Positions 41,936 to 58,693 of a stretch of 64,000 nt of DNA are shown piece by piece. The DNA is from Candidatus Nanoarchaeia archaeon (lineage in GTDB: Archaea > Nanobdellota > Nanobdellia > Pacearchaeales > GW2011-AR1). Each line of letters starts with the position of its first letter. The stretch's first letter is position 1. The notes under the pieces are model-generated. The model did no database searches, was not told the origin of the DNA, and was given only the letters and a program-made list of their open reading frames with translations. The translations under genes and the position numbers were made by a program. The DNA is taken from contig JAQTST010000001.1 of assembly GCA_028711165.1 (NCBI GenBank), positions 14,708 through 78,707 of the forward strand, read 5' to 3'.

Positions 41936-42673
41936 ATGGATATTTTAGAATTAGAATTTAAAGCAAGAGAGCTGAGAAAAAAAGTCTTAGATTTGTCGAT
42001 GAAAGAAGGCGAGGCGCATTTGGGGGGAAGTTTTTCTGAGATAGAAATTTTAGTTTCTCTTTATAATAAAATATTACAACCAGAAGATAAATTTATCTTA
42101 AGTAAAGGGCATGCAAGCACCCCCTTTTATTTATTGTTAAGGGAAAAAGGATATAACCCAATTATTCAAACTCACCCTGATTTAGATGAAAAAAATGGAA
42201 TATTTGCGACGACAGGAAGTCTTGGACATGGCTTGCCAATAGCAGTTGGGATGGCTCTTGCTAGAAAAAAAATGAATAGAAGTGGAAGGATTTATGTTTT
42301 ACTTGGAGACGGAGAATGTCAGGAAGGAACCATATGGGAAGCAGCAGATGTAGCCTGCCATTATAGATTAGATAATTTAACAGTAATTGTTGATCATAAT
42401 AAATTACAGGCGTTATGTAAGATAGAGGAGATTTCCCCTACATTTTTGAAATCAAAATTTCAGGCTTTTGGTTGTTATGTTACTGAAATCGACGGACATA
42501 ATTTTAAAGAGATTATTTCTGCTTTTGAAAATACTCCGGCAGGAAAGCCCTATGTGATAATAGCAAATACTGTAAAGGGTAAGGGGGTGAGTTATATGCA
42601 AAATGACCCAAAATGGCATACAAGATTGCCAAATGAAGAAGAATTAAGAAAAGCATATGATGAATTAAAATGA
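41936..42673 (+). CDS. transketolase, N-terminal (PP/ThDP-binding) subunit
   Basis: 'HLGGSFS', 'GSLGHGLPIAVGMA', 'LLGDGECQEG'. Confidence 0.85.
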   Translation: MDILELEFKARELRKKVLDLSMKEGEAHLGGSFSEIEILVSLYNKILQPEDKFILSKGHASTPFYLLLREKGYNPIIQTHPDLDEKNGIFATTGSLGHGLPIAVGMALARKKMNRSGRIYVLLGDGECQEGTIWEAADVACHYRLDNLTVIVDHNKLQALCKIEEISPTFLKSKFQAFGCYVTEIDGHNFKEIISAFENTPAGKPYVIIANTVKGKGVSYMQNDPKWHTRLPNEEELRKAYDELK

Positions 42674-43149
42674 GAAAAATTTTCGGGAAGGTTATCACAG
42701 AACTTGCAGAAAAAGACAAAGATATTTTTTTAATCGTCGGAGATATTGGCTATGGAATTTTTGACGAATTCAGAAATAAATTTTGTGACAGATTTATCAA
42801 TGTCGGAATTCGAGAACAAAGCATGATAAGCATTGCAGCAGGAATGGCTCTTGAAGGATTAAAACCATATGTGTTTACAATAACTCCTTTTCTTATCGAA
42901 AGACCTTTTGAACAAATAAAAATTGATATTGATCAACAAAATGTCAATGTTAAATTGGTAGGATATGCGGATTATCCAAAACAGGGTCCGACACATGCCG
43001 AATTAGATGCAGAAAAATTAATGAATATTTTAAAAAATACTAAAAATTATTTTCCAAGTAATGCAGATGAGACCAGGAAAGCGCTGATAGAATCTTACGA
43101 AAATAAAAAGCCGACATTTATCAGTTTAAAAAAAGATAAAGTAAATTGA
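42670..43149 (+). CDS. transketolase pyrimidine-binding subunit, short form (no C-terminal TKC domain)
   Basis: 'FINVGIREQSMISIAAGMALEGLKP'. Only 159 aa, ending where the C-terminal domain would begin. ATGA overlap with the N-terminal subunit. Confidence 0.75.
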   Translation: MRKIFGKVITELAEKDKDIFLIVGDIGYGIFDEFRNKFCDRFINVGIREQSMISIAAGMALEGLKPYVFTITPFLIERPFEQIKIDIDQQNVNVKLVGYADYPKQGPTHAELDAEKLMNILKNTKNYFPSNADETRKALIESYENKKPTFISLKKDKVN

Positions 43150-44288: not shown

Positions 44289-44308
44289 CTCTGAGAAAAT
44301 TTAGATTG

Positions 44309-45091
44309 ATGAAAACGGTGATATTATGCGGAGGAAAAGGAACACGTTTGAAAGAAGAAACAGAATATCGCCCCAAACCTCTCGTGGAAATTGGGGGAAA
44401 ACCAATTCTATGGCATATAATGAAAATATATGACACTCAGGGTTTCAATGATTTTGTTCTTTGTCTGGGATATAAGGGGAATATGATTAAGGATTATTTT
44501 TTGAATCTTAAGGAAATGTCCAATGATTTTATGATGGATTTGAAAAATAAAGAGACAGAAACATTTAGCAATAATGAAAGTCTCAAAGGCAAGGTTTGGT
44601 TTGTAGATACAGGATTAAACAGCCAAACTGGTTCGAGGGTGGCAAGAATAAAAAAATACGTAGAGAAAGATGAAGATTTTTTCTTAACTTATGGAGATGG
44701 TGTTTCAGATGTAAACATTCAGGAACTTTATGAATACCACAAGAAAATGGATAGAATAGCGACGATTACTGCAGTTAAACCCCCATATAGGTTTGGGCTA
44801 ATTGAACTTTGCAAGGACAAGGGATTGGTTAAAAAATTTGATGAGAAACCAGATATGACAGATATGGTAATTAATGGAGGATTCATGGTTTTCAAAAATA
44901 AAATATTTGACTATTTGTCTGAAAATGAAAATTGTATTCTTGAAAAAGATGCTTTGGAAAAATTGACAACCGAAAGACAATTGGCAGCTTATGAGCATAA
45001 AGGTTTTTGGAAATGCATGGACAATCAAAAAGAAGTCGATGAATTAAATAAAATTTACCAGGAAGGGGCTCCTTGGGAGACATGGAAATGA
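44309..45091 (+). CDS. rfbF: glucose-1-phosphate cytidylyltransferase
   Basis: 'VILCGGKGTRLKEETEYRPKPLVEIGGKPILWHIMKIY' closely matches the RfbF/DdhA N-terminus. ATG at 44309; the ORF-track start is a TTG one codon upstream. Confidence 0.9.
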   Translation: MKTVILCGGKGTRLKEETEYRPKPLVEIGGKPILWHIMKIYDTQGFNDFVLCLGYKGNMIKDYFLNLKEMSNDFMMDLKNKETETFSNNESLKGKVWFVDTGLNSQTGSRVARIKKYVEKDEDFFLTYGDGVSDVNIQELYEYHKKMDRIATITAVKPPYRFGLIELCKDKGLVKKFDEKPDMTDMVINGGFMVFKNKIFDYLSENENCILEKDALEKLTTERQLAAYEHKGFWKCMDNQKEVDELNKIYQEGAPWETWK

Positions 45092-46050
45092 ATAAAGAAT
45101 TTTGGGAAAATAAAAATGTTTTAGTCACGGGGGCGGGAGGTTTTAAAGGAAGTCATTTATTGGAAAAATTAGGTGAAACAGAAGCGAACATAATTTCTCT
45201 TGTAAGAGACTTTGATCCAAAAAGTTATTTTGAAATGCAAAAACTTGGAAAGAAATCGACGGTTGTCGTCGGAGATTTAAAGGATTACAGAAAGATTTCA
45301 GATATTCTATCCAAATATGAGATCACAACAATTTTTCATCTGGGGGCGCAACCAATTGTTACAACTGCTTTGTCAAATCCTGTTGAAACTTTAGAGACAA
45401 ATATTATGGGGACGGTAAATATTCTGGATTCTGCAAGGATTAATTCTAAGATAGAAGAGATTGTGATGATTTCCAGCGACAAGGCATATGGCCCTACCGA
45501 TAAAATTCCTTACAAAGAAACAGAACGATTGCAGGGCAAAGCGCCATATGATGTTTCAAAATCATGTGCTGATTTAATTGCTCAAATGTATTCTAAAATT
45601 TTTGATTTACCCGTTACAATAGCGAGATCTGTAAATGTTTTTGGCCCGGGAGATTTAAACTGGAACAGAATAATTCCGGGGATAATGGAATCAATTATTA
45701 AAAATAAACCTCTCAAAATTAGAAGTGATGGGAAAATGATTAGAGAATATATTTATGTAAAAGACAGCATTGATGCTTATATTAATCTCGCTGAGAATAT
45801 AAAAAAAACAAGGGGAGAAGCGTTTAATATTAGTGGAAAAAATATTATGTCTGTTCTTGAAATTATTGAAAAAACGTCAGAGGCATTAGGAAGAAAAGTG
45901 AATTATGAAATAATAAATAATGCAAAGGCAGAGATTCCAAAACAATATCTCGATGGGAATAAAATTAAAACTACTTTAGGTTGGGAAGCCAAGACTAATT
46001 TTGAAGAGGCAATTAAAGAGACATTTGAATGGTATACAAAATTAATGTAA
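45088..46050 (+). CDS. rfbG: CDP-glucose 4,6-dehydratase
   Basis: 'FWENKNVLVTGAGGFKGSHL', 'YDVSK'. ATGA overlap with rfbF. Confidence 0.85.
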   Translation: MNKEFWENKNVLVTGAGGFKGSHLLEKLGETEANIISLVRDFDPKSYFEMQKLGKKSTVVVGDLKDYRKISDILSKYEITTIFHLGAQPIVTTALSNPVETLETNIMGTVNILDSARINSKIEEIVMISSDKAYGPTDKIPYKETERLQGKAPYDVSKSCADLIAQMYSKIFDLPVTIARSVNVFGPGDLNWNRIIPGIMESIIKNKPLKIRSDGKMIREYIYVKDSIDAYINLAENIKKTRGEAFNISGKNIMSVLEIIEKTSEALGRKVNYEIINNAKAEIPKQYLDGNKIKTTLGWEAKTNFEEAIKETFEWYTKLM

Positions 46051-46051
46051 G

Positions 46052-47623
46052 ATGAAAAAAAAATTAAGTTATCTGTTTGATAAAGAAAAAAGTTCTGAGA
46101 TTAAAAAACCATTATTTATATTTGACATTGCAAACAATCATAATGGCGATGTTGAGCATGGCTTGAAAATTATTCGTGAAACTTCTAAAGTATGTAATGG
46201 ATTAGAAGATAAATTTCTTTTCGGATTTAAATTTCAATATAGAGACTTAGATAGTTTTATTCATCCGGATTATAAAGACAGAAAAGACATAAGTTATGTT
46301 AAAAGATTTTCTGATACAAAATTGACAAGAAAAGAATTTGAATTAATGAAAAATGAAATAGAAAACGGAGGATTTATTTCTGTATGCACTCCTTTTGACG
46401 AGAACAGCGTCGATCTAATTGAAGAACAAAATTTTGATATAATAAAAATTGCAAGCTGTTCTTTTACTGATTGGCCTCTACTGGAAAGAATTGTCAAAAC
46501 AGACAAGCCAATAATTGCATCAACTGCAGGAGCTACTCTCGAAGAACTTGACAGGGTTGTTTCATTTCTTGAGCACCGAGATAAAAAAAGTGTATTAATG
46601 CACTGTGTTGGTGAATATCCAACTAAAAAAGAAAGTCTTCAGTTGAATCAGATAGACTTGCTGAAAAAGCGTTACCCCGAAATCACAATTGGATTTTCTA
46701 CACATGAAGAACCAAATAATCTTGATGCTGTTAAGATTGCCGTCGGAAAAGGGGCGCAAGTATTCGAGAGACATGTAAATGTTGAATCAGAAAAATATTC
46801 AATAAATGCTTATTCTTCAACGCCTGGTGAGATAAAAAAATGGCTGCAGTCTGCTGAAGAGGCTTATGAAATGTGCGGTGTGGAAAATAATCGTCATATC
46901 AGCACAGAAAAAGAAAAAAATGATTTGAGAAGATTCAGGAGAGGAGTATTCGTAAAAAGAAATCTGAAGGAAGGAGAATTATTGACAAAAGAAAATATTT
47001 TTTATGCATTTCCTTGCGGTGAAAGACAAATACTAGCAAATGATATGTCAAAATATATTGAATATATTCCTACTAAAGATATCAATACAAATGAGGCAAT
47101 TAATTTAGAAAATTTAACAATTAAAAATTCACGTGAAGATGTTTTAAGAATTGTTAAAAAATTGAAAGATATAGTTTTAGAAAGCCATATAATTTTACCT
47201 AATAGAATAGAGTTAGAGTTATCGCACCATTACGGGATTGAAAATTATGAAAAATTTGGTGCTGCAATTTTAAACTGCATTAACAGAGAGTATTGTAAAA
47301 AGTTAATAATATTACTACCGGGACAAAATCATCCTTTGCATTACCATGAAAAGAAAGAGGAAACTTTCCAAGTTTTATATGGAGATATGAATCTTAAGCT
47401 TGGAAATGAAAAAATATCATTGAAACCAGGAGATATACAGACGGTAGAAAGAAAAGTCAATCACAGTTTTTCTTCTGAGAAAGGATGTATTTTTGAGGAG
47501 GTGTCAACGACGCATTATAATAATGATTCTTTTTATGAAAATGAAGAAGTAAGAAATAATAAGAACAGAAAAACGCATATGACTTTCTGGGCAGATTGGC
47601 TATCTGGAAAAACTATAGAATGA
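46052..47623 (+). CDS. NeuB-family PEP-condensing (ulosonic acid synthase-like) enzyme fused to SAF and C-terminal cupin domains
   Basis: 'FDIANNHNGD', 'FKFQ', a TIM-barrel-length N-terminal region, and the C-terminal cupin motif 'GQNHPLHYHEKKEETFQVLYG...KPGD'. Confidence 0.7.
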   Translation: MKKKLSYLFDKEKSSEIKKPLFIFDIANNHNGDVEHGLKIIRETSKVCNGLEDKFLFGFKFQYRDLDSFIHPDYKDRKDISYVKRFSDTKLTRKEFELMKNEIENGGFISVCTPFDENSVDLIEEQNFDIIKIASCSFTDWPLLERIVKTDKPIIASTAGATLEELDRVVSFLEHRDKKSVLMHCVGEYPTKKESLQLNQIDLLKKRYPEITIGFSTHEEPNNLDAVKIAVGKGAQVFERHVNVESEKYSINAYSSTPGEIKKWLQSAEEAYEMCGVENNRHISTEKEKNDLRRFRRGVFVKRNLKEGELLTKENIFYAFPCGERQILANDMSKYIEYIPTKDINTNEAINLENLTIKNSREDVLRIVKKLKDIVLESHIILPNRIELELSHHYGIENYEKFGAAILNCINREYCKKLIILLPGQNHPLHYHEKKEETFQVLYGDMNLKLGNEKISLKPGDIQTVERKVNHSFSSEKGCIFEEVSTTHYNNDSFYENEEVRNNKNRKTHMTFWADWLSGKTIE

Positions 47624-47696
47624 TTAAAATATATTCTCAAAATATTATGAATTTTTCCTTCATAACCTTATTAAATGTGAAAAATCCTTTTTTAGA

Positions 47697-48671
47697 ATGA
47701 AAAAAGTGAAGAGACTAATCAGCATAGTTATTCCTGCGTATAATGAAGAAGAAGGATTGGATGAACTTTATAGAAGACTGCAGAAAGTTTTAGATGGTTT
47801 AGATAAATATTCTTTTGAGGTAATAATTGTAGAAAATGGTTCAAGAGATGATACCTATAAGAAATTGTTGGAGATTCATCAAAAAGATAAACGATTTAAG
47901 ATTGTTCAGTTGTCCAAAAATTTTAATTGCGATGGAGGAATAAGCGCAGGATTAAAATATGTCAGAGGTGATGCTGTAATACTTATGAATGCTGATCTCC
48001 AGGATCCTCCGGAGATTATTCCAGAGTTTATTAATAAATGGGAACAAGGATATGAAATTATTTATGGAGTTATCCAGAAAAGAAAAGGTGTTTCAATTTT
48101 AAGAAAAATGGTATCCTGGATGTTTTACCAAACAATATATTCTTTAACTAACGGACAAATTAAAAAAAATGTCAGTGATTTCAGATTAATTGATAAAAAA
48201 GTGTATGAAGTAATAAACAGTATGCCTGAGCATAATCGATTTCTGAGAGGAATGATTTCATGGACAGGATTCAAGAGCACAGGTATCCCTTTTGTAAGAG
48301 CAGAAAGATATAAGGAAGGAGGCGAAGCAAAAGTGTTGAGCATTTTCCAACGTGCAAAAAATATAAAATGGTTTGTCACAAATGCAATTTTTACATTTTC
48401 GGATTTTCCATTGAAATTAATGACCAGCGTCGGTGCTTTTACTTCTTTCTTGTCATTTATACTTGCGATGTATTTCTTGGGAGGTTATCTTATCTACGGA
48501 ACAGCTTCCCCGGGATATGTAAAAGGACATACCTCTCTGATGTTAGTTATATTATTTTTATTTGGAGTTCTATTTATTTTTTTAGGGATTATCGGTAAAT
48601 ACATTTCGAAAATTTATGATGAGGTAAAACAACGCCCGTTGTATATTGTGCGTGATAAAATCGGAGTATAG
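47697..48671 (+). CDS. polyprenyl/dolichyl-phosphate sugar synthase-type GT2 (Dpm1/ArnC/GtrB-like) with C-terminal TM helices
   Basis: 'ISIVIPAYNEEEGL', 'VENGSRDDT', 'MNADLQDPPE', and two C-terminal hydrophobic helices. Confidence 0.8.
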   Translation: MKKVKRLISIVIPAYNEEEGLDELYRRLQKVLDGLDKYSFEVIIVENGSRDDTYKKLLEIHQKDKRFKIVQLSKNFNCDGGISAGLKYVRGDAVILMNADLQDPPEIIPEFINKWEQGYEIIYGVIQKRKGVSILRKMVSWMFYQTIYSLTNGQIKKNVSDFRLIDKKVYEVINSMPEHNRFLRGMISWTGFKSTGIPFVRAERYKEGGEAKVLSIFQRAKNIKWFVTNAIFTFSDFPLKLMTSVGAFTSFLSFILAMYFLGGYLIYGTASPGYVKGHTSLMLVILFLFGVLFIFLGIIGKYISKIYDEVKQRPLYIVRDKIGV

Positions 48672-48674
48672 AAT

Positions 48675-49532
48675 ATGAAAAAAATTTTAATAACTGGGGG
48701 GAACGGATTTATAGCAAGAAATCTCTATGAAAATTTAAAAGGAAAATATGATGTTAAAACTATAAATCACCAGGAACTTGATCTGCTTGATTCACCAAAG
48801 GTGTTTGATTATGTAAATCAAAAAAAATTTGATGTTGTTATACATTCTGCTACATACGACGCTGCTCCTAAACATTCTGTTAAAGATCCTGCAAAAGTCT
48901 TAGATAATAATCTGAGAATGTTTTTTAATATTGCGAGATGCAGGGATTATTTTGGAAAGATGATTTATTTTGGTTCGGGGGCAGAATTTAGCCGAGAGCA
49001 TTGGATTCCTAAAATGAAAGAAAATTATTTTGACGAACACGTTCCAAAGGACCAATACGGTTTTTCTAAATATGTGATGACAAAATATACAAAATCAAAT
49101 GAAAATATAATTAACCTCCGACTTTTTGCAGTGGTAGGGAGAAATGATGATTGGAAAACTCGTTTTATTCCCAACGCATGCTGTCAGGCAATGGAAAAAG
49201 AAACAATAGATATACATCAGAATGCTTTTTATGATTATTTAGATGTTGATGATTTAACAAGGGTAGTAGATTGGTTTATCAATAATAATTCAAAAGAAAA
49301 AGTGTATAATGTGTGTTCTGGAAAAACTTATGACAGAAGAAGTCTGGCAGAAAAAATTGTAAAAATTTCTGGAGAAGATTTAAAGATAAATATTCAGAAT
49401 AAAGAAATTGGAAAAGAATACAGCGGAGATAATTCTCTCCTTTTGAATGAATTGGGAAATTTTGAGTTTACTCCTATAGATGATTCAATAAAAAGATTAT
49501 ATGAATGGTATAAGAGGGAGAGAAATGAGTAA
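48675..49532 (+). CDS. NAD-dependent sugar epimerase/reductase (GDP-fucose synthase-like SDR)
   Basis: 'ILITGGNGFIARNL', 'YGFSK'. Confidence 0.75.
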   Translation: MKKILITGGNGFIARNLYENLKGKYDVKTINHQELDLLDSPKVFDYVNQKKFDVVIHSATYDAAPKHSVKDPAKVLDNNLRMFFNIARCRDYFGKMIYFGSGAEFSREHWIPKMKENYFDEHVPKDQYGFSKYVMTKYTKSNENIINLRLFAVVGRNDDWKTRFIPNACCQAMEKETIDIHQNAFYDYLDVDDLTRVVDWFINNNSKEKVYNVCSGKTYDRRSLAEKIVKISGEDLKINIQNKEIGKEYSGDNSLLLNELGNFEFTPIDDSIKRLYEWYKRERNE

Positions 49533-51351
49533 ACTAAATTATCTTTTGGTGATGCCCCGATTAGTTCAGAATGTTGGGGATGGATATTCTTTCCCCCTGG
49601 GGCTTCCATATATTTCTGCTAGCATGAAAAAGTCGGGATTTAATGTAAGAACCATTAATTTGAATCATCGCGAAGGAGATATTTTTAATATTCTTGAAAA
49701 AGAAATTGAAGAAAACAAAATCAATGTTGTTGCAACGGGCGGGCTTTCCTTCCAATATACTACAATCAAGGAGGTTATTGATTCTGCTAAGAGAGTAGAT
49801 AAAAAAATTAATACAATTGTCGGGGGAGGAATTATCACAGCAGATCCAAAACCAGCAATGATTGCCTTAGAAAATGTAGATTATGGGATAATCGGTGAAG
49901 GGGAAAAGACAATATGCGAGTTAAGTGAAGCAATTGAGAAAAAATTAGATATCTGCAAAATCGATGGAGTAATTTTGAGTGATGGAAGAAGTTATGTTCA
50001 GACAAATCCCCGCAAAGAAATTGAAAATATTGATTCTATCGCCTGGCCAGATTATGAAGGATTTGAATTTGAAAAGTTCTTAGAAACATCGCCAAGTATC
50101 AGCGGGATAAATAAAAAAAATACAGCATTTATGATTGCCAGCCGTTCATGTCCTTATAGTTGCACTTTTTGTTTTCACACCCTCGGTAAAAAATATCGAC
50201 AGAGGACACTGGATAATTTTTTCGAAGAATTAGATTATATGGTAGCTAAATATGATCTGGGGTTTATTTGTTTAGCCGATGAACTTTTTTCTGCAGATAC
50301 AAAACGCACAGAAGAATTTTGCGAGAGAATAAAACCTTACAATATTAAATGGTGGGCACAATTCAGAGTCGATCAGATAGCAGAAAATCCAAAACTTCTT
50401 CCGATGCTAAAAGAGTCTGGATGTGATGTTATGTCTTTTGGATTAGAAAGTGCAGATAACCGCATTCTAAAAAGTATGAAGAAAAAAACGACAATTGAAG
50501 AAACAGAAAAAGCATTAAAATCTGTCTATGACAGCGGGATGCATTTAGAAGGTGCTTTTATATTCGGTGATATTGAAGAAACAGGGGAAACTGCAGATAA
50601 CACTTTAAAATGGTGGAAAGAACATTCAGAGTATAAAATAACTCTTAATCTTATAACCATTTACCCCGGAACTTTTCTTTATAATCATGCATGCAACAAA
50701 GGATTAATTGAAGATAGAGTTAAATTTCTTAAAGATGGATGTCCTCAGGTAAATGTTTCTAAATTAACCGACGGAGAAGTTTCTAAATTAGTTAAAGAAA
50801 TAATCGAAGCTCCCTTAACTCTAACAAAGACTCTTTCAGAAAGTAAAACGAATGTTTTAGATTACAAAACAGGAAGAATGGAGGTTTGGGGGAAATGCAG
50901 CATCTGTGATAGAGAGAATTATTGGGAAAATGTAAAATTATTTTCTTCAAGCTTTCTTGCCTGTAACAAATGCGGACAAAGATATAACTTAATTTTATCA
51001 GATGAAGTAATATCTAACATAGACGATAATTTAAAAAAATTATTGGATGAAGAGGAAAAGATAGCAATGTGGGGAATAAATTATCATGTAACAAATTTAT
51101 TTAGGAGGTCAAAATTACTCAAAGATAAAAATGTTTATCCAATTGAAATTTCACAAATGAAAAGGTTAGTTGATTTATATGGGAAAAAAGTAAATCCTCC
51201 CGAGATTATAGATTCTGAAAAAATAAAAACAGTAGTGATTCCAATTCCAGCGTATATTAATGAAATTACCGGGCGCATAAAAAAGAATCACAAAGAGGTT
51301 AAAAAAATTATAGATATTTGCGAGTTGATAAATCCAAATTATTCAAAATGA
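49525..51351 (+). CDS. class B radical SAM enzyme with zinc-ribbon and a C-terminal domain resembling the C-methyltransferase C-terminal domain
   Basis: 'IASRSCPYSCTFCFH', 'GLESADNRILKSM', 'CSICD...CNKCGQRY', then 'KIAMWGINYHVTNL...VNPPEII...VVIPIP'. Start at the ATG preceded by GGGAGAG. Confidence 0.85.
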   Translation: MSKLNYLLVMPRLVQNVGDGYSFPLGLPYISASMKKSGFNVRTINLNHREGDIFNILEKEIEENKINVVATGGLSFQYTTIKEVIDSAKRVDKKINTIVGGGIITADPKPAMIALENVDYGIIGEGEKTICELSEAIEKKLDICKIDGVILSDGRSYVQTNPRKEIENIDSIAWPDYEGFEFEKFLETSPSISGINKKNTAFMIASRSCPYSCTFCFHTLGKKYRQRTLDNFFEELDYMVAKYDLGFICLADELFSADTKRTEEFCERIKPYNIKWWAQFRVDQIAENPKLLPMLKESGCDVMSFGLESADNRILKSMKKKTTIEETEKALKSVYDSGMHLEGAFIFGDIEETGETADNTLKWWKEHSEYKITLNLITIYPGTFLYNHACNKGLIEDRVKFLKDGCPQVNVSKLTDGEVSKLVKEIIEAPLTLTKTLSESKTNVLDYKTGRMEVWGKCSICDRENYWENVKLFSSSFLACNKCGQRYNLILSDEVISNIDDNLKKLLDEEEKIAMWGINYHVTNLFRRSKLLKDKNVYPIEISQMKRLVDLYGKKVNPPEIIDSEKIKTVVIPIPAYINEITGRIKKNHKEVKKIIDICELINPNYSK

Positions 51352-51851
51352 ATACAAAAAGTGCTATAAATTTTCTGGAAGAACAGATTACAGACGCAAG
51401 AAAAGGATTACCTGAAGAAATTTTTCTTTTTGCAAGCAGCATTACTCCATTGGTAAATGTAGAATTATTAATAAAAGATGAAAATGGAAGAACGCTTTTA
51501 TCGTGGAGAGATGATAAATATGCAGGAAAGGGCTGGCATATTCCGGGGGGAATTGTCAGGTTTAAAGAAAGTTTAGAAGAAAGAATTCAGAAAGTTGCAA
51601 AAGAGGAAATTGGCACCCAGATTGAATTTGAACCTAATCCGATAGCAATAAAGCAGGTTATTTTAGAACAGAACACAAGAGGACATTCGCTGGCATTTAT
51701 GTATAAATGTTTTCTTAACAGCAAATATACTTTAGAAAATAAAGGTTTAACTGAAAAAGATGCAGGTTATTTGAAATGGCATGAATTTTGTCCAAATAAT
51801 TTAATTAAAGTACAGGAAATATATCGGGAGTTTATCAATGACTATAAATAA
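51348..51851 (+). CDS. NUDIX hydrolase (GDP-mannose mannosyl hydrolase/WcaH-like NDP-sugar hydrolase)
   Basis: Nudix box 'GGIVRFKESLEERIQKVAKEEIG'. The preceding 'TPLVNVELLIKDENGRTLL' resembles the WcaH layout. ATGA overlap upstream. Confidence 0.7.
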   Translation: MNTKSAINFLEEQITDARKGLPEEIFLFASSITPLVNVELLIKDENGRTLLSWRDDKYAGKGWHIPGGIVRFKESLEERIQKVAKEEIGTQIEFEPNPIAIKQVILEQNTRGHSLAFMYKCFLNSKYTLENKGLTEKDAGYLKWHEFCPNNLIKVQEIYREFINDYK

Positions 51852-53037
51852 ATGCAGAGTATGTGAGAATGATTTTTTTGAAAAACCGCTATTGAGGTAT
51901 GAGAATATGCCGTCGACAGCTCAATATTTACCAGATATAGAATCCTTAGAAAGAGATAAGGGAATTGTTTTGGAAGTGTGTCAATGTTCAAAATGCGGTT
52001 TGGTGCAATTAAATAATGAACCTGTTCCGTATTACAAAGAGGTTATACGTGCTTCAGGATTTTCAGAAGAAATGAAAAATTTTAGATTAGAACAATTTAA
52101 AGAATTTACAAAAAAGTATTCTTTAGGAAATAAAAAAATTATTGAAATCGGTTGTGGAAGAGGAGAATATCTCTCTCTTATGCAAAATTTTATAACCAAT
52201 TCTTCTGGACTGGAATATTCAGAAAGTTCTGTGATACAAGGAAATAGAGAAGGGTTAAGAATTTCTAAGGGATTCATCGAAAAAGATTCGGATAGATTGA
52301 AAAATTCTCCTTTTGACGGATTTTATATTTTAAGTTTTCTTGAACATTTACCAAATATTAATTCGGTCCTCAAAGGAATAAGCAACAATCTTACAGAAAA
52401 GGCAGTTGGAATAATCGAGGTTCCAAATTTTGATATGATTTTGGAAAGAAATCTTTTTTCAGAATTCGCAAGGGATCATTTATTCTATTTTACCGAAGAG
52501 ACATTGAGCTCAACATTAAACAGAAATGGTTTTGAGATTATTGAGTGCAAAGAGATATGGCAGGATTATATAATTTCTGCGGTGGTTAAAAAGAAAATTT
52601 ATGACGAGACAAATATCCCAATTAGAAAAAAAGAGAAATTAGATTTGTCTGAGTTTAATAATCATCAGAATAAAATAACAAGAGAATTAACAAATTATAT
52701 TAATCAATTTGGAGATAAGAAAACGGCCATATGGGGAGCAGGGCATCAGTCATTTAGCATTCTATCCTTGGCAAAACTCGAGGATAAGATTAGATATGTT
52801 GTTGATTCCGCAACGTTTAAGCAAGGCAAATATACTCCCGCAACGCATATTCCGATTGTTCATCCAGATACATTAATGTCAAATCCGGTGGATTCAATTA
52901 TTATAATGGCAGGAAGCTATTCTGATGAGGTTTCGAATATTATAAAAATAAAATATAAAAATAAATTAGAAGATAAAGTCAAGAAAATAAATATAGCCAT
53001 CCTAAGAGATTTTGGATTGGAGGAAATTAATGAATGA
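51838..53037 (+). CDS. NDP-hexose C-methyltransferase (second TylCIII-type copy)
   Basis: 'CRVCEN...CSKCGLVQL', 'IIEIGCGRGEYL', C-terminal 'TAIWGAGHQSFSIL...'. Confidence 0.8.
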   Translation: MTINKCRVCENDFFEKPLLRYENMPSTAQYLPDIESLERDKGIVLEVCQCSKCGLVQLNNEPVPYYKEVIRASGFSEEMKNFRLEQFKEFTKKYSLGNKKIIEIGCGRGEYLSLMQNFITNSSGLEYSESSVIQGNREGLRISKGFIEKDSDRLKNSPFDGFYILSFLEHLPNINSVLKGISNNLTEKAVGIIEVPNFDMILERNLFSEFARDHLFYFTEETLSSTLNRNGFEIIECKEIWQDYIISAVVKKKIYDETNIPIRKKEKLDLSEFNNHQNKITRELTNYINQFGDKKTAIWGAGHQSFSILSLAKLEDKIRYVVDSATFKQGKYTPATHIPIVHPDTLMSNPVDSIIIMAGSYSDEVSNIIKIKYKNKLEDKVKKINIAILRDFGLEEINE

Positions 53038-54088
53038 AGGTTTAGTAAGTATTATAATTCCCGTATATAACGGAGAAAAATATATTGATAGATGCCTGGA
53101 AAGTATTTTTAGTCAGGGTTATAAAAATATTGAGACAATATTAATAAATGATGGTTCAACCGACGGTAGCAGGGAGATATGTAACGAATATGCATTTAAT
53201 TATAATAATATTGATGTGTTTAATATAAAAAATCAAGGGCCTGCAGCGGCAAGGAATAAAGGAATAAAAAATTCAAGAGGAGAATTTATTTTTTTTCTTG
53301 ATATAGATGATTTTATCGAAAGTAATGCAATAGGGCTACTAATAAAAAATTATAATCAATACAAGGCGGACATAGTCGTTGGAGATTTCAAAAATGTTGG
53401 AAAAAGTATGACTAATTCGGGGCATAGCAATGTTTTTTCAGAAGATAAATTGATGATGAAAAAAGATATTGGAGATTATGTAAAAAAATATTTAAAAAAA
53501 CCGAACAGACATCCTTTATTTGCTTATTCTTGGGGAAGATTGTTTAAGTCTTCAATCATAAAAAATAAGGATATTAAATTTGATGAAGATTTACATACTT
53601 TTGAAGATGTGGCTTTTAATTTTGAATATTTAAAGCATACTGATAAAATCTTCTTTGTAAATCAGGCGATATATAATCATCAGATGTATGACAGTTTTAA
53701 TTCTGCAACAATGGATATTGGAAATAATCCAAAAAAATTATTTGGTTATAAGAAAGCACTTGAAAATGTTAAAAATTTTCTTGAGTGTAGTGATTTAGAA
53801 AATATTAATATAAAAAAAGAGGTGGGGCACGCAGATGTATGTTATACAATAATTCAGTTAATCCGCACTTGTGGACAAATAAATAAAAATAATGAAAAAG
53901 AGATTTACAAACTTGTCCACGAGATTGTTAATGAACTAAATTTCAGAGATAACCTTCAGTTTTATTCTCCATCAAAAGGAGACAGTAAGATTATTCCAAT
54001 GCTGATGAAGCTGAAACTTGTCACACCAATTACTAAATTATGCAAACATAAAGCGTATAAAAGATATAACAGAGGCAATAAGAAATGA
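53030..54088 (+). CDS. family 2 glycosyltransferase
   Basis: 'VSIIIPVYNGEKYI', 'INDGSTDGS', 'FLDIDD'. Confidence 0.85.
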   Translation: MNEGLVSIIIPVYNGEKYIDRCLESIFSQGYKNIETILINDGSTDGSREICNEYAFNYNNIDVFNIKNQGPAAARNKGIKNSRGEFIFFLDIDDFIESNAIGLLIKNYNQYKADIVVGDFKNVGKSMTNSGHSNVFSEDKLMMKKDIGDYVKKYLKKPNRHPLFAYSWGRLFKSSIIKNKDIKFDEDLHTFEDVAFNFEYLKHTDKIFFVNQAIYNHQMYDSFNSATMDIGNNPKKLFGYKKALENVKNFLECSDLENINIKKEVGHADVCYTIIQLIRTCGQINKNNEKEIYKLVHEIVNELNFRDNLQFYSPSKGDSKIIPMLMKLKLVTPITKLCKHKAYKRYNRGNKK

Positions 54089-55275
54089 AAAAAGATATCA
54101 TTGAAGATAAAAATCTCCCTGTAATAATATTTGGTGCAGGTATTGTTGGTGAAGCATTATTTAATGTGTGCAATGAGGTGGGGGTTAAAGTTGAATCTTT
54201 TTGCGACAATAATAAAAATAAAACAAAATTAAATAAATGCGGGACAAAGGTATTTACCCCTGCTGAAATAAAAGAGGAATATGGGGATGCAAATTTTTTA
54301 ATATCTGCTGCGGATATAAAAGATGTTGTTGATCAATTAGAAGAGTTGGGGTTTTCAAAATGGTATGCTGGCAGTTTGTTGTTAAAAGATTTTAACGTCG
54401 ATAAATATAAATTTAATGCTTTGGGAGATTTTGTCAGATATGCTGTTGATACCTGTATTTTATGTCAAGACAATTATCTAAATCCAAATAAACTTTTTTT
54501 AAGAAGTGTGGATTTAATCATCACTGAACGCTGTTCTTTAAAATGCAAGAACTGTTCCAATCTTATGCAGTATTATGAAAAACCAAAAGATTGTGATTAC
54601 AGAGAATTGAAAAAATCTATAGATTCATTTTGTAACATCGCTGACGAGATTAATGAATTCAGAATTTTGGGGGGGGAACCGTTTATGAATAAAGATTTTG
54701 ATTTAACAATAAAAAGATTAATTAATGAGCCCAAGGTTAAAAAAGTTGTAATTTACACAAACGGTACAATAGTGCCTGAAGAAAACAAAATTGACAGTTT
54801 GAAAGATGATAAGGTACTTTTACTGATTACAGATTATAATAACCTTTCAAGAAAATTAGAAAATTTAACTGAGAAATTGTCAAAAAAAGATATTTCTTTT
54901 TATGTACAAAAAGCACAAGGATGGACTAATTGTAGTGATATATTCAAACATTATAGAAATATTGAAGAACAGAAAAAAATCTTTCAAAATTGTTGTGCTC
55001 GAAATACTTTTACATTATCGAACGGAAAATTATACAGATGTCCTTTTTCTGCAAATGCCGACAGACTTAGAGCAGTTCCGAATCTTGAGAGAGATTATAT
55101 AAATATTTTTAAGGAGAAAAATGTCCAAGAGATGAAAGAAGAAATTAAAGAGTTTATTATGAAAAAAGATTTCCTTGAAACATGTGATTATTGCAATGGG
55201 AGGTCATTTGGAGATACTGAAATAGAACCTGCAATTCAAATAAAAAAATCCTTGGAATATAAAAAATATGAATGA
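54085..55275 (+). CDS. radical SAM protein with N-terminal Rossmann-like (NeuD/PglD-N or C-methyltransferase-C-like) domain
   Basis: 'LPVIIFGAGIVGEALFNVCNEVGVKVESFCDNNKNK', then 'CSLKCKNCSN', 'LGGEPFMN', C-terminal 'CCARN...YRCPFS...CDYCNG'. Confidence 0.75.
   Translation: MKKDIIEDKNLPVIIFGAGIVGEALFNVCNEVGVKVESFCDNNKNKTKLNKCGTKVFTPAEIKEEYGDANFLISAADIKDVVDQLEELGFSKWYAGSLLLKDFNVDKYKFNALGDFVRYAVDTCILCQDNYLNPNKLFLRSVDLIITERCSLKCKNCSNLMQYYEKPKDCDYRELKKSIDSFCNIADEINEFRILGGEPFMNKDFDLTIKRLINEPKVKKVVIYTNGTIVPEENKIDSLKDDKVLLLITDYNNLSRKLENLTEKLSKKDISFYVQKAQGWTNCSDIFKHYRNIEEQKKIFQNCCARNTFTLSNGKLYRCPFSANADRLRAVPNLERDYINIFKEKNVQEMKEEIKEFIMKKDFLETCDYCNGRSFGDTEIEPAIQIKKSLEYKKYE
54669..54676 (+). repeat. G8 homopolymer inside a radical SAM gene
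   Basis: 'ttggggggggaacc' encodes L-G-G-E (the GGEP motif). Confidence 0.9.
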
Positions 55276-56362
55276 ATTAAAACAGAATGAATTAGAGAAG
55301 AGAAGTTGGTTAAAAGAGAATAAACCAAGAGTTTATGAAAAGGTTTCAAAATTCGCTGAAAAAGCAAAAAGGGGAGAGAGCATTGCGATAATTCAATTTC
55401 AGTATGATTATACTTGCAATTTTAAATGCCCGCATTGTTCAGTAAAAAGATTTCAGGGAAAAAAGCAAGGCAGATATTTTACGATTAAAGATGTCGAAGA
55501 ACTTTCACGGCAGGCTGATGAAATGGGGCTTGCAAATATGGTAATTACGGGAGGAGAACCATTGGTATTTCGGGATTTGGATTATTTAGTTAAAGCAATC
55601 GATCCTAAAAAATTTTATATTTCTTCAGATACAAATGGGTGGTTGTTAAATTATGAAAAAGCAAAACATTTGAAAGAAATTGGTATTGATAAAATTCAAT
55701 TAAGTCTTGACAGCATTACAGAAAATAATTCAGAGAATTTTCATGGAAAGGGAAAAACAAACGGTTGGGCATTAAAAGCTCTTGATGCATCATTAAAAGC
55801 TGAATTAAATACAATTGTTCAGACAGTCGTTACAAAACAGAGAGTTCGGTCAAAGGAGTTTATTGATTTCTTAGAATACCTAAATAAAAAAGATGTGGGA
55901 GTTTTTGTCACTTATGCAAAACCTGTTGGGGCATGGGAAGGAAATTTTGATATTCTCGTCGATAAAGAAGATATGAATTATGTAAAAGAACTGGAAAAAA
56001 GATATAAGGTTTTCACACATTTAACTCCTTCATACGGACTTGACTTGGGATGTATTGCAGTCAAAAGAATGATATCAATTACAAAATATGGAGATGTTAT
56101 GCCTTGTCCTTATATTCATGTTTCACTTGGAAATTTTTTTAAAGAACCGTTAAAAGATATTGTCGAGAGAGGCTTAAAAATAAAATATTTTGGAAATCAT
56201 TGTGATACTTGCCTTATTGCAGAAGACAGGAATTTTATTGACAAATACGTTGTTGGCAGAATATATAACAAACCTCTTCCAGTGCCCTATGATAGGGTAT
56301 TTGATAAAGAGGATTTTATTGAAAAACCTGATTTTGTAAAAAAAGATATCTTAACTCAATAA
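55268..56362 (+). CDS. radical SAM protein with SPASM/twitch-like C-terminus
   Basis: 'CNFKCPHCS', 'ITGGEPLV', 'VMPCPYIH...HCDTCL'. Confidence 0.85.
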   Translation: MNELKQNELEKRSWLKENKPRVYEKVSKFAEKAKRGESIAIIQFQYDYTCNFKCPHCSVKRFQGKKQGRYFTIKDVEELSRQADEMGLANMVITGGEPLVFRDLDYLVKAIDPKKFYISSDTNGWLLNYEKAKHLKEIGIDKIQLSLDSITENNSENFHGKGKTNGWALKALDASLKAELNTIVQTVVTKQRVRSKEFIDFLEYLNKKDVGVFVTYAKPVGAWEGNFDILVDKEDMNYVKELEKRYKVFTHLTPSYGLDLGCIAVKRMISITKYGDVMPCPYIHVSLGNFFKEPLKDIVERGLKIKYFGNHCDTCLIAEDRNFIDKYVVGRIYNKPLPVPYDRVFDKEDFIEKPDFVKKDILTQ

Positions 56363-56372
56363 TATTTTTAAA
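56363..56372 (+). promoter_or_regulatory. TATA-like box (internal promoter in the long plus-strand gene array)
   Basis: 'tatttttaaa' lies 22-31 nt upstream of the ATG at 56394. Confidence 0.3.
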
Positions 56373-56393
56373 CAGATTAATCAGATTTTGATT

Positions 56394-58025
56394 ATGAAAC
56401 TTAGTGATTATGTGACTTCTTTTACAGAGAAAATGACTGACAGTATTTTTTTAGTTTCTGGCGGGGGGATTATGCATCTTGTTGATTCTATTGGGAGAAG
56501 TAATCTTGACAGCTACTGCTGCCATCATGAACAAGCGTGTGCATTGGCTGCTGAAGGATATGCCAGAATGAAAAATGATATTGGTGTTATTTGCGTTACA
56601 ACAGGGCCGGGAGGAACAAATGCAATTACAGGAGTTGCGGCAAGCTGGATGGACGGAATTCCTATGATGGTAATTTCCGGACAGGTGAGAAGAGAAATAA
56701 TGCTAAAAGAAAAAGATAAAAAAAGAGGATTAAGGCAAATCGGTCCTCAGGAACTTAATATCGTTGATGTTGTTAAACCAATCACAAAATATGCTGCGAC
56801 TGTAATGAATCCTAATGAGATAAAATATCATTTAGAAAAAGCAAGTTATATTGCTAAAGAAGGCAAGCCCGGACCTGTTTGGATTGATATACCTTTAGAT
56901 GTTCAGAGTTCTGAAATTGATGAAGAAACTTTAAAAAATTTTTCAGTTCCAAAAAAACAAAAGCTACATATTCCTCTTGAGAAAATTGTCAATGAATTAG
57001 AAAAATCAAAAAAACCATTGATGCTCGTTGGACATGGAGTTAGGCTTGCGGGAGCTTATGATTTATTGTGGGAGTTTATTGAGAAATCTAAAATTAATGT
57101 TGTCTCAGCAATGAGCGGGGATGATTTAGTAAATGAAGATTATCCTTATTACCTTGGCAAGCAAGGAATGACTGGAACAAAGGCAGCAAATTATGCCGTC
57201 GATAATTGTGATTTATTACTTGTTCTTGGAACGAGAATGCAAATGAGACAGACATCTTTTGATTATGATAAATTTGCTAAAAAAGCTAAGAAAATTATGG
57301 TAGATATTGATAAAGCCGAGCTAGATAAAATTAATTTTAAACCGAATATAAAAGTAGAATCTGATGCAAAAGATTTTTTAGAAAATATCTTGGAAAAAGA
57401 GATTAGATTAAATCGGTGGCAGGTTAATACAGAACCTATTCTTTATGAAAGCAAAAAAAATTTTATAGATATTTATGAATTTTTCCAAGAAGGATTAAAT
57501 GGGAAATGTGATTTTCCGATTATTACATCAAATGGGATGACTGCTGAAGTTACTCACCAAGCTGCGAGATTAAAAAAAGGACAGAGATTGATAACAAATA
57601 CTGCTCTTGGTGAAATGGGGAAGGGGTTGCCGATGGCGATTGGAGCATGTATTGCAAATAAGAAAAAACCTGTAATCTGTATGGAAGGCGATGGTTCGAT
57701 AATGATGAATCTTCAGGAATTAGAAACAATGAAATATCATAATCTCCCATTGAAAGTTTTTATTTTTAATAATGGAGGTTACTATTCTATAAGAAATACC
57801 CACAGGAAATTTTTTAATAAAATTTTTGCTGCGGATGAAGAATCGGGAGTAAGTCTTCCCAACTGGGAAAATTTGATTAATGGGTGGGGGATTAAATATG
57901 AAAAAATAAAAAATAAAAATGATTTGTATAAGATTAAAAATATTTTAGATTATCACGGGCCAGTTGTTTGTGAACTGATGATTGATCCAGAACAAAAGGG
58001 ACTTCCGAAATGGAGTGCAAAATGA
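56394..58025 (+). CDS. ThDP-dependent acetolactate-synthase-like carboligase (YerE-like candidate)
   Basis: 'TTGPGGTNAITG', ThDP motif 'GDGSIMMNLQELET...FNNGGY'. First ATG at 56394; the ORF-track start is a TTG. Confidence 0.8.
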   Translation: MKLSDYVTSFTEKMTDSIFLVSGGGIMHLVDSIGRSNLDSYCCHHEQACALAAEGYARMKNDIGVICVTTGPGGTNAITGVAASWMDGIPMMVISGQVRREIMLKEKDKKRGLRQIGPQELNIVDVVKPITKYAATVMNPNEIKYHLEKASYIAKEGKPGPVWIDIPLDVQSSEIDEETLKNFSVPKKQKLHIPLEKIVNELEKSKKPLMLVGHGVRLAGAYDLLWEFIEKSKINVVSAMSGDDLVNEDYPYYLGKQGMTGTKAANYAVDNCDLLLVLGTRMQMRQTSFDYDKFAKKAKKIMVDIDKAELDKINFKPNIKVESDAKDFLENILEKEIRLNRWQVNTEPILYESKKNFIDIYEFFQEGLNGKCDFPIITSNGMTAEVTHQAARLKKGQRLITNTALGEMGKGLPMAIGACIANKKKPVICMEGDGSIMMNLQELETMKYHNLPLKVFIFNNGGYYSIRNTHRKFFNKIFAADEESGVSLPNWENLINGWGIKYEKIKNKNDLYKIKNILDYHGPVVCELMIDPEQKGLPKWSAK

Positions 58026-58693
58026 AAATAGAATCAATAATATTTGATTTTGATGGGGTGCTTGTAAAATCGAATCAAATAAGAAATCAGACTTATTTTG
58101 ATATATTGAGCCATGTACCAAATTCTAAAAAAATAATAGAAGAGGCAATTGCAGAAGATTCAAAAAGAGACAGATATGGAATTATCGAGGCTGTTTTGCA
58201 AGAATTGAAAGATAAAAATTTAATGCAGTTTGAAGATTTAGGAGAAGAAACAGAAAAATATGTTTGCAGGTATAATTGGATTACAGAGAGGAAAGTTTCA
58301 ATAGCTACAGAAGTACCCGGAGCTGAAAAAAGTTTAGAAATGTTAAGCCAAGAATATCCTTTGTTTATTGTTACAGGAACAATTCAAAAAAGTATAGATA
58401 TAGTTTTAAAAAATAGAGAGATGCAAAAATATTTCAAAAAAGTTTATGGGGGATTCAGAGACAAAAAAGAAGGTATGACTATCTTAATAAAAGAACAGAG
58501 GATAAAACAAAGAAGTTCTATTTTTGTTGGAGATGGAAAATCAGATTATGAATGTGCGAGATATCTTTCAATGCCCTTTATAGGAATAATGAATGAAACA
58601 AATGATTTTGAAAAGAGACAAGATGTTATGTGGAAATTGTATGATTTAGAAAAATTACCTAATGTAATCAGAGAGATAAAAGAGAATGAATGA
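58022..58693 (+). CDS. HAD-superfamily hydrolase
   Basis: 'IIFDFDGVLV' (DxDG motif I), 'VGDGKSDYECA' (motif IV). ATGA overlap upstream. Confidence 0.75.
   Translation: MKIESIIFDFDGVLVKSNQIRNQTYFDILSHVPNSKKIIEEAIAEDSKRDRYGIIEAVLQELKDKNLMQFEDLGEETEKYVCRYNWITERKVSIATEVPGAEKSLEMLSQEYPLFIVTGTIQKSIDIVLKNREMQKYFKKVYGGFRDKKEGMTILIKEQRIKQRSSIFVGDGKSDYECARYLSMPFIGIMNETNDFEKRQDVMWKLYDLEKLPNVIREIKENE

Follow-up and report, generated by a model that had tools for sequence, protein, structure and literature searches.

The 64-kb window analysed here is the whole stretch of DNA taken from a Candidatus Nanoarchaeia archaeon (contig JAQTST010000001.1, positions 14,708 to 78,707, forward strand). At 49525..51351 it carries a gene whose product joins a class B radical S-adenosylmethionine (SAM) core to a C-terminal module made of a Cys4 ribbon and a Rossmann-like domain. 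Coordinates are given as positions within the window, and residue numbers refer to this 608-amino-acid target protein unless another protein is named. The gene is real: its open reading frame begins with ATG at 49525, a ribosome-binding site (GGGAGAG) lies 7 nucleotides upstream, and an identical 608-residue protein is deposited at NCBI as MDD5012079.1 under the label 'cobalamin-dependent protein [Candidatus Nanoarchaeia archaeon]'. The gene and the parts of its product are as follows.

49525..51351, + strand: target gene, class B (B12-binding) radical SAM protein of 608 amino acids with a C-terminal ribbon and Rossmann-like module (open reading frame, ribosome-binding site, Pfam, homologs, AlphaFold2 model)
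49582..49923, + strand: B12-binding (cobalamin) Rossmann domain, residues 20-133 (PF02310; Foldseek matches TsrM, CysS, TokK and OxsB)
50134..50613, + strand: radical SAM core, residues 204-363, with the CxxxCxxC motif C209/C213/C216 at nucleotides 50149-50172 (PF04055)
50614..50838, + strand: post-core region, residues 364-438, with conserved G405-C406-P407 and N410 (conservation, secondary structure of the model)
50839..50994, + strand: beta-rich Cys4 ribbon, residues 439-490 (C458, C461, C480, C483), predicted to hold Zn or Fe (invariant cysteines, model)
51001..51336, + strand: predicted Rossmann-like accessory domain, residues ~493-604 (hhalign, shuffle and specificity controls, Foldseek, transitive Pfam links)

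The start of the gene and the end of the upstream short-chain dehydrogenase/reductase (SDR) gene (48675..49532) overlap by 8 nucleotides (window 49501..49532), and a Nudix reading frame (51348..51851) overlaps its 3' end. Packing this close would fit co-translation of the genes in the cassette. At least 120 homolog clusters are found at 53-79% identity, and because they align over 99-100% of the length, the whole architecture, including the tail, constitutes a conserved family. The family is uncharacterised and sparsely distributed, and its members bear generic annotations in public records ('cobalamin-dependent protein', 'radical SAM protein', YgiQ, BchE).

A preliminary description of this DNA, made from the sequence alone, had assigned a B12/radical SAM core to the protein, and this assignment is borne out by Pfam: PF02310 covers residues 20-133 with 57.6 bits (cutoff 32.1) and PF04055 covers residues 204-363 with 60.2 bits (cutoff 29.5). 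C209, C213, and C216 are invariant in 67 aligned homologs. The full-length AlphaFold2 model (predicted local distance difference test score, pLDDT, 92.9; predicted template-modelling score 0.91) retrieves TsrM, AprD4, CysS, MgmA, TokK, and OxsB in Foldseek with E-values of 3e-23 to 4e-16 and a probability of 1.00 over approximately 420-470 columns. These class B structures are the best structural matches for residues ~1-440 (query template-modelling score, TMq, ~0.5), and none of them covers the C-terminal module. The best match among Protein Data Bank (PDB) sequences is AprD4, a diol dehydratase. No NCBIfam cutoff is reached for the named class B subfamilies (BchE, PhpK, HpnJ, HpnR, KedN5, TsrM, the methyl-coenzyme M reductase glutamine methylase, and others); the best partial scores, those of BchE (153.9 versus 481), PhpK (134.4 versus 600), and HpnJ (131.4 versus 578), amount to about one quarter to one third of the cutoffs. 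Judged by its domains and modelled fold, the target belongs to the class B radical SAM enzymes, and its binding of cobalamin is predicted. By analogy, residues 364-438 probably correspond to the cap region of class B enzymes; this role of the post-core segment is based on the cap domains of TsrM and TokK (PMC9204698). In solved class B enzymes, the binding of the substrate involves C-terminal domains specific to each family (PMC9204698). The target follows the same modular logic as TsrM, TokK, CysS, MgmA, OxsB, and AprD4, whose own C-terminal domains are helical or otherwise unrelated to that of the target.

The preliminary description had also aligned by eye a domain of about 110 residues at the end of the protein with the C-terminal domain of two sugar C-methyltransferases encoded in the same window (36193..37440 and 51838..53037), and this alignment withstood closer comparison. 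BLASTP of residues 439-608 against the 51838 protein yields 24% identity over 93 amino acids (E 6e-4, as a single comparison) in the register proposed by eye, and a hidden Markov model (HMM) derived from close family members only gives the same protein 21.4 bits at its residues 279-375. A first hhalign run, in which a shallow alignment (effective number of sequences, Neff, 3.2) was compared with the canonical C-methyltransferase family, gave a probability of 1.5% and was not significant; significance was reached only once distant representatives had been added (250 domain sequences, Neff 6.9). The canonical 36193-type family is then matched at its C-terminal domain with probabilities of 93.5-95.1% and E-values of ~1e-7 to 3e-8 (95.1% and 3.2e-8 for the 250-sequence alignment), and the 51838-type family, whose alignment was assembled from related loci, with 98.4% and 5.6e-15 (columns 6-97, residues 280-374). 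In 40 column shuffles per family, the score did not exceed 16.2, compared with real scores of 87.3 and 47.7, and reversed alignments score 10-12. Moreover, the match is specific: among other domains from the same loci, the B12 domain reaches 18%, the class I methyltransferase domain 19% (8.6-19% across comparisons), and two SDRs 0.2-0.3%.

The end domain is also linked transitively to Pfam Methyltransf_14, since two distant relatives (P0386 and P0369) match both the family profile (E ~1e-9 to 3e-11) and Methyltransf_14 (E 1.2e-4 and 5e-3) at the same place. Three motifs are common to both sides in register: a (W/Y)G loop, D-x-S/N-x-x-K, and G..(I/V)..P. In the target, the conserved residues are W516-G517-x-N519, (D/E)541-I-S543-x-x-K546, G553, P559, P575, and I581; in particular, W516, G517, P559, and I581 are nearly invariant in the 67 homologs, and S543 and K546 are invariant within the closer homolog set. 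Residues 439-608 are modelled with a pLDDT of 93.6 as a beta-ribbon, a long helix, and a 4- to 5-stranded Rossmann-like domain. Searched against the PDB with Foldseek, this module finds all three solved sugar C-3 methyltransferases, MtmC, TcaB9, and KijD1, at a root-mean-square deviation (rmsd) of 3.0-3.9 Å over 108-113 columns with a probability of 0.93-0.99. Taken together, the profile comparisons and the model identify the last ~110 residues as a true homolog of the Rossmann-like core of the C-methyltransferase C-terminal domain, the closest relative by sequence being the C-terminal domain of the co-clustered 51838 enzyme.

The Cys4 ribbon that had been noted between the core and this domain is present as well. 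Its motif, C458-x2-C461-x18-C480-x2-C483, is invariant in the 67 homologs, and the ribbon is modelled as five strands at a pLDDT above 85; after residue 440, Pfam reports weak generic zinc-ribbon models only. The same ribbon occurs in a second class B protein of the window.

27016..28632, - strand: paralog, class B radical SAM protein of 538 amino acids with the same ribbon and without the Rossmann-like end domain (Pfam, alignment)

As the preliminary description had stated, the paralog keeps the ribbon and lacks the last domain: it is 34% identical over residues 1-490, its Cys pairs fall in register with those of the target, and its sequence stops after that stretch. Because a paralog without the end domain has the same ribbon in register, the ribbon is assigned to the radical SAM lineage and either predates the acquisition of the Rossmann-like domain or is independent of it.

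The distribution of the end domain was followed with its sequence profile. A word-indexed homolog search with the C-terminal region returned one fragment only. An exhaustive profile search with the C-terminal 170 amino acids against 1.84 billion representatives found 316 clusters at E <= 1e-3, and the architectures of the best 150 of these were classified with local HMMs. This survey places the end domain on a B12/radical SAM core in 78 of the best 150; the rest are mostly short fragments, and six with a different N-terminal region form one sulfotransferase-like family (P0344, P0351, P0378, P0385, P0386, and P0388). The sulfotransferase-like proteins are ~430-510 amino acids long and carry the same Rossmann-like domain at the C-terminus, which is matched by hhalign to the target family at 99.4% and to the 51838-type C-methyltransferases at 98.2%. 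In P0344, a Cys4 ribbon also precedes this domain. A more distant resemblance (hhalign 40.6-72.5%) is found in a small Rossmann-like domain that forms the N-terminal ~90 amino acids of the radical SAM protein encoded at 54085. The domain thus occurs on different catalytic cores (B12 radical SAM, sulfotransferase-like, class I C-methyltransferase and, with weaker evidence, 54085), and since it is found on sulfotransferase-like proteins and, distantly, at the 54085 N-terminus, it is a portable module rather than one restricted to C-methyltransferases. By these profile matches, up to three enzymes of the cassette may share one type of accessory domain.

Foldseek also matches the module to the N-terminal domain of CAC2185 (PDB 2g6t) with a probability of 1.00 and an rmsd of 3.4 Å over 103 columns; this record carries no function, and the sequence similarity is weaker than that to the 51838-type C-methyltransferase. 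From its name, we take 2g6t to represent PF22674 (C2185-like_N). PF22674 is matched weakly by P0107 and P0119 of the family, by the relative P0385, and by the 54085 ortholog at locus L001. Several fusions were seen within the family: the B12 radical SAM protein is joined to the Nudix protein in P0019 and P0068 and to a homolog of the SPASM radical SAM protein 55268 in P0096. In P0009, part of the N-terminal region is present twice, which may be an artefact of assembly or gene calling.

To place the gene in its context, 17 loci with a target homolog were examined (L001-L017). One contig was sampled twice, which leaves 16 independent loci from at least eight phyla; the sources are Omnitrophota, Magnetococcales, Pirellulales, Planctomycetaceae, Fibrobacteres, Lentisphaerae, Victivallaceae, Magasanikbacteria, Lachnospiraceae, and Peptococcaceae. 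Co-occurrence was counted within 10 kb of the target homolog. The genes around the target in the window are listed below.

44306..46050, + strand: glucose-1-phosphate cytidylyltransferase and a gene resembling cytidine diphosphate (CDP)-glucose 4,6-dehydratase (TIGR02623 with 305.5 bits, cutoff 300.25; TIGR02622 is the top model for the second gene, below cutoff)
46052..49532, + strand: NeuB-cupin fusion (46052..47623; 12/17 loci), polyprenyl-phosphate-type family 2 glycosyltransferase (GT2), and SDR epimerase/reductase (9/17), directly upstream of the target
51348..51851, + strand: Nudix-like protein resembling GDP-mannose mannosyl hydrolase (12/17 loci)
51838..53037, + strand: TcaB9/MtmC-type nucleoside diphosphate (NDP)-hexose C-methyltransferase (Pfam, PDB sequence matches; 15/17 loci)
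54085..55275, + strand: radical SAM protein with an N-terminal Rossmann-like domain (7/17 loci)
55268..56362, + strand: SPASM radical SAM protein (15/17 loci)
56388..58025, + strand: thiamine diphosphate (ThDP) enzyme, acetolactate-synthase-like (13/17 loci)
58686..60005, + strand: RfbH/E1-type CDP-4-keto-6-deoxyglucose 3-dehydrase (NF011936 with 629.7 bits, cutoff 423; 11/17 loci)

Downstream of the target, the order is Nudix, the 51838 C-methyltransferase, a GT2, two radical SAM genes, the ThDP enzyme, a HAD protein, and RfbH. The claim that a genuine TylCIII-type gene lies two genes downstream is upheld: among PDB sequences, the 51838 protein aligns along its entire length with MtmC, TcaB9, and KijD1 (E 3e-21 to 2e-16). 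The 36193 protein shows strong Methyltransf_13, class I methyltransferase, and Methyltransf_14 matches in Pfam, and by these sequence matches both neighbours are genuine C-methyltransferases. The glucose-1-phosphate cytidylyltransferase and RfbH pass NCBIfam equivalog cutoffs. Through guilt by association, these surroundings argue strongly for a pathway that tailors a CDP-deoxyhexose. Because the target sits in such a nucleotide-sugar tailoring cassette, a sugar substrate is plausible, and a CDP-deoxyhexose is the likely one.

The cassette also has relatives far beyond the archaea. Between the window (44306..60005) and L001-L017, the B12 radical SAM proteins share 49-68% and most other cassette proteins ~40-75% amino acid identity, and gene order is partly conserved between the window and bacterial loci of many phyla. 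In particular, synteny with L001 extends over 13 genes, the paralogous B12 radical SAM gene among them. Since the cassette is common to a metagenome-assembled genome of a DPANN archaeon and to bacteria of many phyla, horizontal transfer is suggested. The DPANN origin of the window agrees with the deposited target protein and with P0122, which is 100% identical to the 36193 C-methyltransferase.

The cassette shares a cytidylyltransferase, a 4,6-dehydratase-like gene, RfbH, and a ThDP enzyme with CDP-3,6-dideoxyhexose and yersiniose-type pathways (RfbF/RfbG/RfbH and YerE). From this context, we take the ThDP enzyme (56388..58025) to be YerE-like; by analogy with yersiniose biosynthesis, a two-carbon branch may be added. 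Unlike those pathways, the cassette adds a C-methyltransferase, a B12 radical SAM protein, two further radical SAM proteins, a Nudix protein, and the NeuB-cupin fusion, and we know of no pathway that matches this combination. The Nudix and NeuB-cupin pair might suggest, speculatively, that the tailored CDP-hexose is freed from its nucleotide and condensed with phosphoenolpyruvate to give a higher-carbon sugar acid.

These data are best explained, in our judgement with somewhat better than even probability, by a class B radical SAM enzyme whose accreted end domain handles a CDP-hexose within a conserved cassette. According to this proposal, the adjacent cytidylyltransferase, 4,6-dehydratase, and RfbH would make a CDP-linked 6-deoxy or 3,6-dideoxy hexose, and the Rossmann-like domain would serve as a substrate handle docking the nucleotide part (CDP) of the sugar. 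A conserved glycine loop follows its first strand and an acidic-x-Ser-x-x-Lys motif its second, and both resemble elements with which Rossmann folds bind nucleotides. Docking could then allow the cobalamin/radical SAM core to modify an unactivated sugar or side-branch carbon beyond the reach of the polar C-methyltransferase. The reaction would most likely be methyl transfer, with hydrogen abstraction by a 5'-deoxyadenosyl radical followed by methylation from methylcobalamin, so that the chemistry of the target is probably methylation. Further processing of the product would fall to the Nudix, NeuB-cupin, and glycosyltransferase genes conserved alongside the target.

The preliminary description had explained the module differently, namely as what remains of an ancestral TylC3-type C-methyltransferase that kept both accessory domains when a B12/radical SAM core took the place of its class I SAM core. 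The joint occurrence of a Cys4 ribbon and a Methyltransf_14-like domain in the target, and a C-x-K-C-G knuckle in both types of ribbon, would fit such an exchange. However, compared with the N-terminal 75-80 residues of either C-methyltransferase family, the ribbon reaches an hhalign probability of 3-6%, with the CxxCG knuckle alone aligned, whereas the zinc domains of the two C-methyltransferase families, used as a positive control, match each other at 96.8%. The Cys pairs are separated by 18 residues in the target versus 38-40 in the C-methyltransferases, and the ribbon follows the catalytic core in the former but precedes it in the latter. Homology of the ribbon to the C-methyltransferase zinc domain (Methyltransf_13) was therefore rejected, and of the similarity proposed for the C-terminal region as a whole, the part concerning the end domain stands and the part concerning the ribbon does not. 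Because paralog 27016..28632 shares the ribbon and not the last domain, accretion of a domain is preferred over a swap of the core; the latter was rejected as the origin of the protein and is considered very unlikely. By sequence, the target looks like a B12 radical SAM enzyme that acquired one C-methyltransferase-type accessory domain, which is the better description. Nor is it a member of the TylC3/TcaB9/MtmC/KijD1 family (Methyltransf_13, class I methyltransferase, Methyltransf_14), since two of the three defining domains were tested for and not found: it matches no methyltransferase Pfam domain and thus has no class I SAM-binding domain, catalysis being assigned instead to the [4Fe-4S]/SAM core and B12 domain, and its ribbon is unrelated. 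Homology is confined to the last ~95-105 residues, and the class of nucleotide-sugar substrate is probably common to both.

Several observations weigh against a CDP-handling methylase. Scans of the whole protein, residues 439-608, and residues 499-608 found no match to Methyltransf_13 or Methyltransf_14 in the target or in 38 relatives, even at E <= 10, and a profile of the C-terminal region searched against PDB sequences found no C-methyltransferase, returning chance-level TRAP/MtrB and weak zinc-ribbon matches to Elf1 and HypF. The homology covers the Rossmann core only (~positions 51-144 of the 160 in Methyltransf_14), the first ~50 positions having no counterpart, and the Foldseek E-values of the isolated module are weak (0.04-0.1), with generic Rossmann proteins interleaved among the C-methyltransferases. 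The proposed handle role is modelled on a nucleotide contact that is presumed for the homologous domain in TcaB9, MtmC, and KijD1. AprD4, a close structural match, is not known to use cobalamin, and the fold alone is no proof of cobalamin use. Class B enzymes also carry out cyclisation, ring contraction, and dehydration, and because none of the named class B subfamilies is matched at its NCBIfam cutoff, the target may catalyse one of these reactions instead.

In part, these points would suit a generic small Rossmann fold used for oligomerisation, partner docking, or reductant binding rather than for recognition of an NDP-sugar. Consistent with that alternative, DUF364, HcgC, Rex, shikimate dehydrogenases, and FAAL subdomains have Foldseek E-values comparable to or better than those of the C-methyltransferases, Methyltransf_14 has no direct match to the target, and some family members match PF22674 instead. 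Yet hhalign separates the C-methyltransferases sharply from other Rossmann-type families, and the real scores stand far above the shuffle controls; together with the motifs common in register and the closest relative being the co-clustered C-methyltransferase, this makes the alternative quite improbable. A stronger contender keeps the pathway and changes the chemistry or its timing: the enzyme might act without methylation (rearrangement or ring contraction, AprD4-like dehydration, BchE-like oxidative cyclisation, C-C bond formation), or on a lipid-linked or free sugar after nucleotide removal. BchE and HpnJ are among the best NCBIfam matches, all below cutoff, AprD4 is the best PDB sequence match, and the cassette already has a C-methyltransferase, other methyltransferases, a Nudix protein, and polyprenyl-phosphate-type GT2s. 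On the other hand, the NCBIfam matches also include methylase families such as the PhpK and KedN5 types, fusion to and adjacency with an NDP-sugar-type Nudix protein fit action before nucleotide removal, and the majority of characterised class B enzymes are methylases (PMC9204698). On balance, such a reaction is considered rather unlikely, and methylation of a CDP-hexose by the target is retained as the preferred reading.

To our knowledge, the class B sugar C-methylases GenK, GenD1/GntE, Fms7, and MoeK5 act on aminoglycoside pseudo-oligosaccharides or a moenomycin intermediate and not on nucleotide-activated monosaccharides. They have a B12-binding domain and a radical SAM core, as the target does; unlike the target, none has been described with a Methyltransf_14-like domain. 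They provide the precedent for methylation of unactivated sp3 sugar carbons (PMC9204698, PMC12931638). Nucleotide-sugar substrates and such a domain are not mentioned in these two reviews of class B enzymes (PMC9204698, PMC12931638), and open-access full-text literature yielded no paper joining B12 radical SAM terms with CDP-glucose. With its end domain and its conserved CDP-sugar gene set, the target is a promising candidate to be the first of its class that works on a sugar bound to a nucleotide.

Class B radical SAM enzymes form a very large and mostly uncharacterised group, for which guessing the substrate is the main obstacle. A recognisable substrate-side domain, combined with a conserved CDP-hexose neighbourhood, points to a substrate class that can be purchased or made enzymatically, which renders the family directly testable. 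If the proposal is correct, radical C-alkylation would extend to nucleotide sugars, alkyl groups at sugar positions that enolate chemistry cannot reach would be explained, and a portable sugar-nucleotide-handle domain useful for annotating other enzymes would be defined. Attention would also be drawn to an unknown surface sugar whose pathway has been widely transferred and is found in DPANN archaea, Omnitrophota, Planctomycetota, Lentisphaerota, Fibrobacterota, Magnetococcales, candidate phyla radiation (CPR) bacteria, and Firmicutes. A bolder extension is possible, though we hold it as tentative and somewhat doubtful. In that extension, the family would comprise the first cobalamin-dependent radical SAM enzymes on nucleotide-activated sugars, recruited to CDP-hexoses by a portable nucleotide-handle domain that sits on no fewer than three unrelated cores (class I C-methyltransferase, B12 radical SAM, and sulfotransferase-like) and perhaps on a fourth (twitch/SPASM radical SAM). 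For the cassette (RfbF/G/H, ThDP enzyme, C-methyltransferase, three radical SAM proteins, Nudix, NeuB-cupin), which DPANN archaea would share with many bacterial phyla through horizontal transfer, the product would be a higher-carbon sugar acid, heavily C-alkylated and not described before.

The wider surroundings of the target are rich in related enzymes. Between 25725 and 56362, the window contains at least ten radical SAM genes in one glycan locus, an unusual density. Three are of class B (25725-27014, 27016-28632, and 49525-51351) and the other seven belong to SPASM, twitch, or further radical SAM types (31465, 32516, 35045, 40240, 43199, 54085, and 55268); alongside them lie the two TcaB9-type C-methyltransferases and further class I methyltransferases (38232 and 41268). 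The genes at 31465..32514 and 32516..33556 encode tandem SPASM radical SAM paralogs with 73% identity and a nearly identical central block of ~130 residues, a pattern that suggests recent duplication or gene conversion. A second sub-cluster (36193..37440, 41936..43149) combines a canonical TcaB9-type C-methyltransferase with split transketolase-like subunits, SPASM radical SAM proteins, and SDRs, and may encode a second branched-sugar route. Its split transketolase subunits (41936/42670) and the SPASM radical SAM protein 43199 have homologs near the target family in one of the 17 loci, L015.

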